Source of the DNA: Escherichia phage PhiR68_1
Reading direction: 5' to 3' (one strand)
Sequence record: PV340575
DNA: 37,128 nt
The position numbers and the translations under genes were made by a program. The notes below the pieces were generated by a model. It was not told where the DNA came from. It made no database searches and was given only the letters and a program-made list of their open reading frames with translations. Positions 6,399 to 8,462 of the stretch are shown here, one piece after another (position 1 is the stretch's first letter; each line of letters begins with the position of its first letter).

Positions 6399-6929
6399 AT
6401 GGTTGATGCAAAAATTCTGAATGGTGTCAGCACATTATTACGGGCTTACGGACGCCTGACCTGCGGGGTTCTGGCTGAAAAAATGCAGATGCCATCCTCC
6501 GCGATGGTGTACTTCCTGCGTGATGCGGTTGATGCCGGAATGCTGACTGAACTTAATGGTTTTTACGACGTACCGCGTCCCCGTACAGAGCAGCCTGTAA
6601 GACGAAACGCAACTGAGCAGCCTGCTGTTGATGATGCCGCGTGGTGTTCCTTCCGCCGCTCATTGCCCTGGCTGGAAGGCAATGCCATTCCGGCACTGGC
6701 AAAAGAATTTGCAACAGGCGTACTGACCTGCGAGTCGGTTTACATCGTTGCGGAAGTGGATGACGAAATGTGCGAACAGGGAATGCCCCGTTTTGTGATG
6801 GCTTATATCGATATCCGGCTGGGGCGTTTTATTTGCAGTTCAAGCGCCTGGAATATCACCGACCATGTACTGCGTTATCTCATTCTTGATTGTTCTCCGG
6901 TTCCCGCAACGGTGCAGGAGGTGGCGTGA
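6399..6929 (+). CDS. Hypothetical semi-essential-region protein
   Basis: 176-aa ORF; first of four translationally coupled ORFs. Confidence 0.6.
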   Translation: MVDAKILNGVSTLLRAYGRLTCGVLAEKMQMPSSAMVYFLRDAVDAGMLTELNGFYDVPRPRTEQPVRRNATEQPAVDDAAWCSFRRSLPWLEGNAIPALAKEFATGVLTCESVYIVAEVDDEMCEQGMPRFVMAYIDIRLGRFICSSSAWNITDHVLRYLILDCSPVPATVQEVA

Positions 6930-7453
6930 TGTTTTTTAAAACGTCAAATCCCGCAGCACTGCTGGCATGGGACCAGTTTATGGCGGACTGCCTGAAACTA
7001 CGCGAAGAAGCCCGCCATCTTGATAAGGTTCTGGGTTGTGGTTGCCGGTCAGTATTCAGCACAGATATTGGTGGGCGTCATTTTCATGGCGTGAATTTTC
7101 CGGGGAGTGAGCGACTTTTCTCGCCGGAGCTGTGGACCGTACAACGGCCCGCATCAGGTAACAGTTGCAGGCCAAGAACATCGCGCATTCCTGCACATCT
7201 GCGGGAGCAGTCAAAAGAGCTGGCGAAAATATGGCAGGAGAATATTCCGGTAACTTATGCCCGTACTGACGCTCTCTTACCCGCACTGGGACTGGATTTC
7301 AGCGCAACAATATTCGGGCCGCTCCGGTGGTTCCGTGTTGGTGATGTGATTTACGTCATGACGGGGATGACACCCGCACCGGGCTGCATGACGGAAATCC
7401 TGTCCGATGAATTCATGAAGGCAAAGATTGCGTTAAAGGGGGCCGCTAAATGA
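6929..7453 (+). CDS. Hypothetical semi-essential-region protein
   Basis: ATG 6929 overlaps upstream stop (GTGATG), GGAGG upstream; 174 aa. Confidence 0.6.
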   Translation: MFFKTSNPAALLAWDQFMADCLKLREEARHLDKVLGCGCRSVFSTDIGGRHFHGVNFPGSERLFSPELWTVQRPASGNSCRPRTSRIPAHLREQSKELAKIWQENIPVTYARTDALLPALGLDFSATIFGPLRWFRVGDVIYVMTGMTPAPGCMTEILSDEFMKAKIALKGAAK

Positions 7454-8118
7454 AAGAACGTGGCGTTGCTTTTAATGACGATATGGTCAGGGCAATTCTC
7501 GAAGGAAGAAAGACGCAAACACGCCGCCCGGTAAAAAATGTCGGACACGATAACTGTCTGGTTATCCATCGTAACGGTGTTTATACCCACGTTATGGATG
7601 CACCTAAGCATGGTTTATGCCCGTTCGGTAACGTTGGTGATCGCATCTGGGTCCGTGAAGCGTGGGCAATATTAGGCAATGAGGATGGTTGCAGTGTGGA
7701 CTGGAACGGCAACCTTTGTCATGGCGATGAGAAGAAGGCAGCAAGGATTTATCGGGCAAGTTGTGAACAAAAGCCTGGTGATTACGGTCTGTGGTCAATA
7801 CCTGATGATGCTGACTGGAAACCTCGCACTGTGAATGAAAAGTTTGATGGCAGGTGGTGCCCATCTATCCACATGCCGCGCTGGGCGTCGCGCATTCTGT
7901 TGGGAATAACCGACGTGCGTGTGGAACGGCTGCATGACATTAGCGAGGCAGATGCGAAAGCGGAAGGCGCATTTCCGGCGACGTACAAAATTACGCCACC
8001 GGAAGCTGTTTATCGCGTTGGTTTTGGTGATATCTGGCGCGGTATTTATGGGCAAGATAACTGGCTGTCTAATCCGTGGGTATGGGTAATTGAGTTTAAG
8101 CGTATTCAGGAAGCATAA
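7450..8118 (+). CDS. ASCH/PUA-like domain protein
   Basis: 222 aa; N-terminal AILEGRKTQTRRP and C-terminal WVWVIEFK resemble ASCH proteins such as E. coli YqfB (remembered); ATGA overlap with upstream ORF. Confidence 0.6.
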   Translation: MKERGVAFNDDMVRAILEGRKTQTRRPVKNVGHDNCLVIHRNGVYTHVMDAPKHGLCPFGNVGDRIWVREAWAILGNEDGCSVDWNGNLCHGDEKKAARIYRASCEQKPGDYGLWSIPDDADWKPRTVNEKFDGRWCPSIHMPRWASRILLGITDVRVERLHDISEADAKAEGAFPATYKITPPEAVYRVGFGDIWRGIYGQDNWLSNPWVWVIEFKRIQEA

Positions 8119-8120
8119 CT

Positions 8121-8462
8121 ATGAGCAAATCACTTAATGCACGTTGTATTCGCCGTTGGGAAGTCAGATTTAAGCCTGTTTGTGATTCAAAAGTTAGCCC
8201 TCACATGCGTAAAAGTTTTTTGCGTGGGGTGCGTGAATTAGGGCTTATTACGGCTGAAAACATGGTTGAAAGCATGGCTGAGAAAAACGCCAGGTTTGAT
8301 TACGACGGCAAGGACACAGGCTGGTCACCGGAGTTTTCTAACTGGTATGCAACATGCCGAGAAAAGTATTGTAAAGAGGCCCGCGACTATCTGGATGAAG
8401 AAGTCACAAATGATGAGATCGATGAAGAAATCAGAACTGAGCTAGAGTATTGGAATGACTAA
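8121..8462 (+). CDS. Hypothetical protein with acidic C-terminus
   Basis: 113-aa ORF, starts 3 nt after upstream stop. Confidence 0.55.
   Translation: MSKSLNARCIRRWEVRFKPVCDSKVSPHMRKSFLRGVRELGLITAENMVESMAEKNARFDYDGKDTGWSPEFSNWYATCREKYCKEARDYLDEEVTNDEIDEEIRTELEYWND

Follow-up and report, generated by a model that had tools for sequence, protein, structure and literature searches.

The DNA analysed here, called the window throughout, is the 37,128-nt sequence of Escherichia phage PhiR68_1 (record PV340575, one strand, 5' to 3'), and our subject is a group of four open reading frames (ORFs) at positions 6399 to 8462, in particular the third, which encodes a protein of 222 amino acids (aa). The window is an entire Mu-like transposable prophage: Gam (5776-6300), GemA, Mor, C, Gin and Mom each match their own Pfam family, and near-identical prophage copies are found in E. 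coli chromosomes, eg NZ_CP178401 at 99.7%. The four ORFs occupy the middle of the early operon, a stretch known in Mu as the classical "semi-essential region", and make up two independent modules. The features are as follows.

6399-6929, plus strand: ORF1, homologue of Mu gp11, 176 aa, acidic (Pfam Gp11_C, 2.9e-39; PHROG 1949, 3.8e-103)
6929-7453, plus strand: ORF2, homologue of Mu gp12, 174 aa, basic (PHROG 2314, 2.1e-76)
7450-8118, plus strand: ORF3, 222 aa, predicted ASCH-fold protein of the PmgT / PHROG 874 family (4.7e-86 across residues 1-221), putative YqfB-like amidohydrolase
8121-8462, plus strand: ORF4, 113 aa, PHROG 6675 (4.1e-58), with a basic N-terminus and an acidic, helix-like C-terminal tail ending in WND
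7417-8494: segment replacing the C-terminus of Mu gp12, gp13, gp14 and gp15, a two-gene cassette of about 1.08 kb delimited by blastn against Mu

The four same-strand ORFs listed in the first-pass annotation are present, with their junctions as it described them. The TGA of ORF1 (6927-6929) overlaps the ATG of ORF2 (6929-6931) by 1 nt in GTGATG (TGATG), ORF2 and ORF3 share ATGA (ATG 7450-7452, TGA 7451-7453), and the TAA of ORF3 (8116-8118) is separated by the spacer 'ct' from the ATG of ORF4 at 8121. A purine-rich, Shine-Dalgarno-like stretch lies 6-10 nt 5' of each start (GAGGA, AGGAGG, AAGGGGG and AGGAAG for ORFs 1 to 4, respectively). The PHROG matches, the Gp11_C match and the ratios of non-synonymous to synonymous substitution rates (dN/dS) against relatives, which are 0.10-0.32 for ORFs 1-3 (dS is saturated for ORF4), indicate that these are real genes and not chance frames. 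A pattern scan gave no convincing promoter or terminator within 6399-8462, which fits a single early transcript, and an Rfam scan of the whole window gave no RNA family. Translational coupling of the four ORFs is plausible from the arrangement of their stops and starts. The same ATGA overlap and 2-nt spacer flank the homologues of ORF3 and ORF4 in phage-plasmids with other neighbours, and the close packing seen here therefore reflects the general packing of phage operons.

ORF3 had been singled out earlier for ASCH-like termini. Both segments, AILEGRKTQTRRP (residues 15-27) and VIEFK (residues 213-217), are present and align with YqfB, the 103-aa N4-acetylcytidine (ac4C) amidohydrolase of E. 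coli. An AlphaFold2 model computed with an alignment of 146 diverse representatives (50% clustering, 39-61% identical to the query) had a mean predicted local distance difference test score (pLDDT) of 89.3 and a predicted template modelling score of 0.84. It replaced a model from a shallower alignment, of 46 sequences with 62-81% identity to ORF3, which was unusable at a pLDDT of 54.9. The deeper model is an ASCH beta-barrel. The structures that match it best, 3iuw, 1t62, 1xne and 1wmm among them, are enzymes or ASCH proteins of the YqfB-like kind and not readers; scores for the YTH and EVE readers reach only about 5. A Foldseek search of the PDB agreed with this ranking, with template modelling scores of 0.73-0.75 when normalised to YqfB, and a search of BFVD placed viral ASCH proteins on top. 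Relatives of ORF3 also match the Pfam ASCH profile (PF04266), all weakly: 32 of the 46 close relatives at E ≤ 1 (best 3.9e-4) and 29 of the 146 distant ones at E ≤ 0.01 (best 1.9e-5). ASCH is the only family to recur among them, no other Pfam family doing so above E 0.01. Of the family searches suggested earlier for the 222-aa protein, the structure search thus returned the ASCH fold and the Pfam ASCH profile failed on the query; profile and structure searches did not lead to an unrelated fold. We hold the ASCH fold of ORF3, as modelled, to be highly probable. A single-sequence match to the ASCH domain of human ASC-1 in the PDB (E 0.012) covers a different region, residues 128-158, and was judged coincidental.

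The correspondence extends to the active site of YqfB. The YqfB sequence used for hhalign was 100% identical to PDB 1te7. Residues 3-26 of the ORF3 family profile align to residues 3-26 of YqfB and, at relaxed settings, all 103 YqfB positions are aligned, at 25% identity. ORF3 carries the ASCH octapeptide GxKxx[E/T]xR, in which G is found in 142, K21 in 146, T24 in 144 and R26 in 145 of the 146 relatives. The positions concerned are given below, the residue pairs being those of hhalign.

7504-7527, plus strand: octapeptide G19-R-K21-T-Q-T24-R-R26 (the 'GKTR' type seen in YqfB), paired one to one with YqfB 19-26 in the alignment
7963-7968, plus strand: E172-G173, aligned to the catalytic Glu74 of YqfB (DAKAEG against HAEQEN in hhalign) and invariant in 146 of 146 relatives
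YqfB K21: ORF3 K21
YqfB T24: ORF3 T24
YqfB R26: ORF3 R26
YqfB E74: ORF3 E172
YqfB Y89: ORF3 Y200
YqfB H70: ORF3 D168
YqfB D27: ORF3 P27

The catalytic set of YqfB, Lys21, Thr24, Arg26 and Glu74, is therefore complete in ORF3. In YqfB itself the K21A, T24A and R26A mutants are inactive, and E74A lowers the turnover number 100-1000-fold (PMC6972931).

ORF3 is not a minimal single-domain protein of about 100-110 aa such as YqfB (103 aa; PDB 1te7 and 9kyf-9kyh). It contains about 120 residues of inserts (approximately 27-62, 73-147 and 174-192) with no counterpart in YqfB or the PDB, and it has further invariant or nearly invariant residues of its own, among them E70, H141, R144, R148 and W196. 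E70, R148, W196 and F216 do not vary across the 146 relatives, and H141, R144 and Y101 hardly do. This pattern of conservation argues for a catalytic centre together with an extended, family-specific substrate surface. A Cys/His metal site composed of C57, C81, C105 and H141 was considered and rejected, since C81 and C105 are kept only in close relatives. Over the same positions (residues 57, 81, 105 and 141; window 7618-7665 and 7690-7770) Cys57 and His141 are nearly invariant family-wide, and a metal or redox site with C57 and H141 may exist.

Taken as a whole, ORF3 as modelled is an elaborated ASCH beta-barrel whose core superimposes on YqfB. It would be a working hydrolase, produced early upon induction or infection, that hydrolyses the amide of an exocyclic N-acyl group on cytosine or on a base of similar chemistry, and its inserts, with several invariant Arg, His and Trp residues, would offer a docking surface for tRNA, other RNA or DNA. 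Unlike YqfB it is phage-encoded and an early gene, and its activity is a prediction. All 19 ASCH proteins tested in one study, from both subgroups including 'GKTR', removed ac4C from tRNA (bioRxiv 10.64898/2026.02.27.708502). The obvious substrate candidates in E. coli would be ac4C34 of elongator tRNA-Met and free ac4C. That ORF3 is a hydrolase of some kind we consider somewhat favoured by the conserved residues and the model; the narrower assignment, an N-acyl-cytosine-type amidohydrolase working as just outlined, is tentative and falls a little short of an even chance.

Several points weigh against that assignment. ORF3 itself has no Pfam ASCH match even at E ≤ 1, so that the curated threshold is not reached, and profile searches of PDB sequences with both ORF3 alignments found nothing. 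The hhalign comparison with YqfB has a probability of only 21%, at E 1e-3, and membership of the ASCH superfamily thus rests mainly on predicted structure. Two of the seven invariants of the YqfB clade are changed, Asp27 to Pro27 and His70 to Asp168, so the substrate of ORF3 may not be ac4C; Tyr89 is kept as Tyr200 in ORF3 and is Asn in 80 of the 146 relatives. Substrate recognition in ORF3 probably differs from that of YqfB, judging by these exchanges. The activity is, moreover, predicted for the whole family, and codon 152 of this particular copy (7903-7905) reads Gly (ILLGITDV) where Glu is found in 141 of the 146 distant and 113 of 114 close relatives; the activity of the Gly152 allele could be altered or impaired. 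Finally, members of the family are carried by phages of Salinibacter, cyanobacteria, Myxococcus and Pseudomonas, and it is quite possible that they share a universal substrate that is not tRNA ac4C. The tRNA-Met ac4C34 modification is established in enterobacteria, a group far narrower than the hosts of this family.

Two observations adjoin these points. Position 152 of ORF3 aligns with Glu54 of YqfB, and the Gly is shared with the representative P0001 (148 member sequences). Phage-plasmids of about 49 kb that carry the ORF3-ORF4 pair have a CAU-anticodon tRNA 3-5 kb downstream of it (8823-8898, 10037-10112 and 10053-10128 in the three loci retrieved). ARAGORN called this gene 'tRNA-Met', and it was considered as a lead to ac4C and dropped: RefSeq gives it as tRNA-Ile (ileX-like, decoding AUA), and it is 89.5% identical to chromosomal tRNA-Ile genes.

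ORF3 could alternatively read or bind modified RNA or DNA without catalysis, comparable to YTH, EVE or the ASCH domain of TRIP4, and act for instance as a sensor or an anti-defence shield. This appears unlikely, as enzymes and YqfB-like ASCH proteins head the structural matches and the four YqfB-catalytic residues have stayed invariant in a family that has diverged below 50% identity. In addition, a Thr-containing octapeptide defines the YqfB-type 'GKTR' enzyme subgroup (bioRxiv 10.64898/2026.02.27.708502). A nuclease, or a hydrolase of some other chemistry, such as the single-stranded RNA (ssRNA) ribonuclease ZmASCH of Zymomonas, with host or phage RNA as its target, is less likely still: ZmASCH ranked below six other ASCH structures, no nuclease family was detected with Pfam or PADLOC, and ZmASCH belongs to the Glu-type octapeptide group and ORF3 to the Thr type (bioRxiv 10.64898/2026.02.27.708502). 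More generally, the ASCH proteins 3s9x (Lactobacillus), PH0355 (2z0t), EF3133 (1t62), ZmASCH (5guq) and TRIP4/EOLA1 mostly have Glu, not Thr, in the motif, and none has the large insert of ORF3. The activities reported for them vary, from ssRNA nuclease and ac4C deacetylase to nucleic-acid binding.

The first-pass annotation took the four ORFs to be co-translated as a unit, and comparison with Mu divides them. In blastn, 5022-7416 (94.6% DNA identity) and 8495-9765 align to Mu at about 95% and 7417-8494 is unmatched; in Mu this slot is filled by the final part of gp12 and by gp13, gp14 and gp15, of which gp15 is on the reverse strand. ORFs 1 and 2 are therefore gp11 and gp12 of the Mu backbone, and ORFs 3 and 4 lie on the replacement segment. 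The three Mu genes gp13, gp14 and gp15 are absent here and have the ASCH gene and the gene for the 113-aa protein in their place. The cassette has relatives elsewhere: 7450-8460, running from the ORF3 ATG to the ORF4 stop, aligns by blastn to Yersinia phage vB_YpM_41 at 81.5%, and 7436-8462 aligns at 89-90% to the E. coli phage-plasmids of about 49 kb that carry the same gene pair. Alleles were counted in 5,426 complete E. coli genomes. DNA resembling gp11-12 is found in 86 of them, the Mu gp13-15 allele in 33 and the full ASCH cassette in 15, with at least 99% identity in 8 records; the gp11-12 allele of the present prophage is found at ≥99% in one record only. These counts identify the position 3' of gp12 as a variable accessory slot. 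On sequence comparison, ORFs 1-2 (Mu backbone) and ORFs 3-4 (horizontally exchanged) are two evolutionary modules and not one unit.

That gp11, gp12, ORF3 and ORF4 form one functional, co-translated complex is accordingly a very improbable alternative. The overlapping or abutting stops and starts, the Shine-Dalgarno-like sequence at each start and the want of a convincing internal promoter or terminator in the pattern scan would all suit it. However, Mu, D108, SfMu and others have gp11-gp12 with unrelated downstream genes, and only one of the eight E. coli records with the cassette at ≥99% has the present gp11-12 allele at that identity. The homologues of ORF3 and ORF4 are spaced equally tightly beside quite different neighbours, and ORF4 relatives stand directly beside a relative of ORF3 in only 8 of about 27 informative loci, in either order (the PmgT-family gene being upstream in two and downstream in six), with a ninth about 0.5 kb away.

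The family to which ORF3 belongs is large and widely dispersed. A word-indexed search with ORF3 gave at least 8,000 matches, all at E ≤ 0.001, and an exhaustive profile search of 1.84 billion representatives at 50% identity gave 52,349 matches at E ≤ 1e-3 and 20,070 at E ≤ 1e-30. The relatives are named 'hypothetical', 'ASCH domain-containing protein' or, from older records, 'morphogenetic protein', and ORF3 is already labelled ASCH in some records of the Prokaryotic Genome Annotation Pipeline (PGAP). By tblastn the family is present in 343 cultured-phage records, among them phages of Salinibacter, Pseudomonas, Vibrio, Escherichia, Klebsiella, Salmonella, Burkholderia, Microcystis and Myxococcus. 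Relatives are carried by P1, phage-plasmids, lambdoid and Rac-like prophages, and phages of Pseudomonas, Vibrio, Salinibacter and cyanobacteria.

PmgT of phage P1 (P1_gp095) is a direct homologue with 65% identity to ORF3 (BLASTP, 2e-98). Like ORF3 its gene is early and accessory: a C1-controlled operator precedes it, and the region around it is variable. The P1 reference protein is annotated as 309 aa, diverges past residue ~232 and does not have the conserved WVWVIEFK end, which suggests, from the alignment, a frameshift or a mis-called end in that reference. The reference pmgT ORF (4817-5746 of the P1 stretch retrieved) overlaps pmgU by about 200 nt. In P1 pmgT is followed by pmgU, which was considered as a counterpart of ORF4 and rejected for want of similarity; the P1 and Mu-like arrangements therefore share the ASCH gene only.

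Genes of this family are always placed in early, non-structural operons: after gam-gp11-gp12 in the window, behind the C1 operator in P1, in the repressor-proximal operon of the phage-plasmids and after recE-recT in a Dickeya prophage. In P1-like phage-plasmids pmgT sits in a hypervariable region (PMC9603915), and in P1 it is non-essential by CRISPR interference, knock-down leaving plating unaffected at an efficiency of plating (EOP) of about 1 (PMC10695390). Early placement, dispensability and a variable region are hallmarks of an accessory host-interaction gene, and ORF3 would be dispensable for growth and would probably modulate host or phage nucleic-acid chemistry. A role in virion morphogenesis, as in the P1 label 'PmgT, putative morphogenetic function', is scarcely credible, for it comes from a legacy annotation carried into UniProt names ('Morphogenetic protein') and runs against the early operons distant from head and tail genes, the fold of a small nucleic-acid or nucleoside enzyme and the P1 knock-down, by which it is effectively refuted for P1.

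ORF3 had also been connected with Mom, whose gene lies at 35803-36540 (Pfam Mom, 2.7e-75), as a possible counter-defence protein or reader of nucleic-acid modification. That connection does not hold up. Mu and D108 have Mom and no ORF3, and relatives of ORF3 occur in many phage types unrelated to Mu, so the presence of both genes in the window is incidental. A counter-defence role of ORF3 is speculative, and none of the four ORFs matched a PADLOC model at E ≤ 0.01.

The two backbone genes are orthologous to those of Mu, with 88-89% amino-acid identity and the same place between gam and gemA; homology and synteny, with Gam upstream and GemA downstream, both assign them to the gp11 and gp12 families. 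ORF1 DNA is 91-95% identical to Mu and D108, with a dN/dS of 0.21 against Mu. The longest frame of ORF2 opens at TTG 6890, and ATG 6929 is the start that matches Mu gp12. Its final 12 codons or so lie beyond the breakpoint at 7416 where homology to Mu stops (blastn and junction alignment), and one copy of it is named 'Mu-Gp12 family protein' by PGAP. Neither gp11 nor gp12 gave a meaningful match in the PDB, and a literature search found no functional data for the Mu proteins.

ORF4, with an isoelectric point of 5.0, belongs to a family of 205 clusters, almost all from Enterobacterales, and has no match in Pfam, NCBIfam, PADLOC or the PDB. In a Pectobacterium prophage its relative follows an unrelated 310-aa protein. 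Going by the loci compared, its pairing with ORF3 is recurrent but not obligate, and the order of the two genes is not fixed.

Homology to Mu resumes downstream of the cassette at a hairpin:

8499-8525, plus strand: hairpin (AGCGGUGUG/CACCGCU) with a trailing U5, lying 3' of ORF4 and 5' of the probable gemA start (ATG 8530/8536); RNA folding energy -20.9 kcal/mol, z -2.2

In the pattern scan this hairpin was not called as a terminator. The equivalent hairpin of Mu runs into a C-rich stretch where the window has a U-rich one, and the present hairpin could be an attenuator within the early operon. The longest gemA frame opens at 8455 and overlaps the ORF4 stop, and PGAP and Mu put the GemA start at about 8536; the 27-codon N-terminal extension (8455-8535) is probably spurious and made by the cassette junction. 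Three other differences from Mu were seen. About 370 bp with gene E19 (Mup19) are missing between mor and C (window 9763-9765; Mu record 9463-9831), a further indel of the early/middle region. Homology to Mu is also broken at 4767-5021, where an 89-aa ORF (4747-5016) replaces Mu gp7 (E6), giving the early operon a second variable slot. Lastly, mom is followed by a 158-aa ORF (36555-37031) with a hydrophobic, signal-like N-terminus, the DNA of which is 99.3% identical to the gp56 region of D108 ('D108-specific protein') and absent from Mu.

A wider proposal may be put forward as speculation, and we regard it as unlikely: that the PmgT/PHROG-874 proteins, expressed early, are 'erasers' acting on an acylated base in host tRNA or another nucleic acid, by which temperate phages would reprogramme decoding or disarm modification-dependent nucleases and defences. 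The inserts would then confer a macromolecular specificity absent from the minimal YqfB, and the family would be among the largest uncharacterised families of phage enzymes, spread over many bacterial phyla. Current understanding is not overturned by the present findings: ORF3 is an uncharacterised member of a known superfamily, located in a mapped mosaic cassette, and its annotation is corrected to that of a YqfB-like ASCH enzyme candidate and not a Mom-associated reader. As the mapped recombination cassette shows, Mu-like prophages have a variable accessory locus in the slot after gp12. Should the predicted activity prove real, nucleic-acid or nucleoside de-acylases would account for a very common class of early genes in phages, and phage infection would be linked to the emerging biology of ac4C erasure by ASCH proteins.

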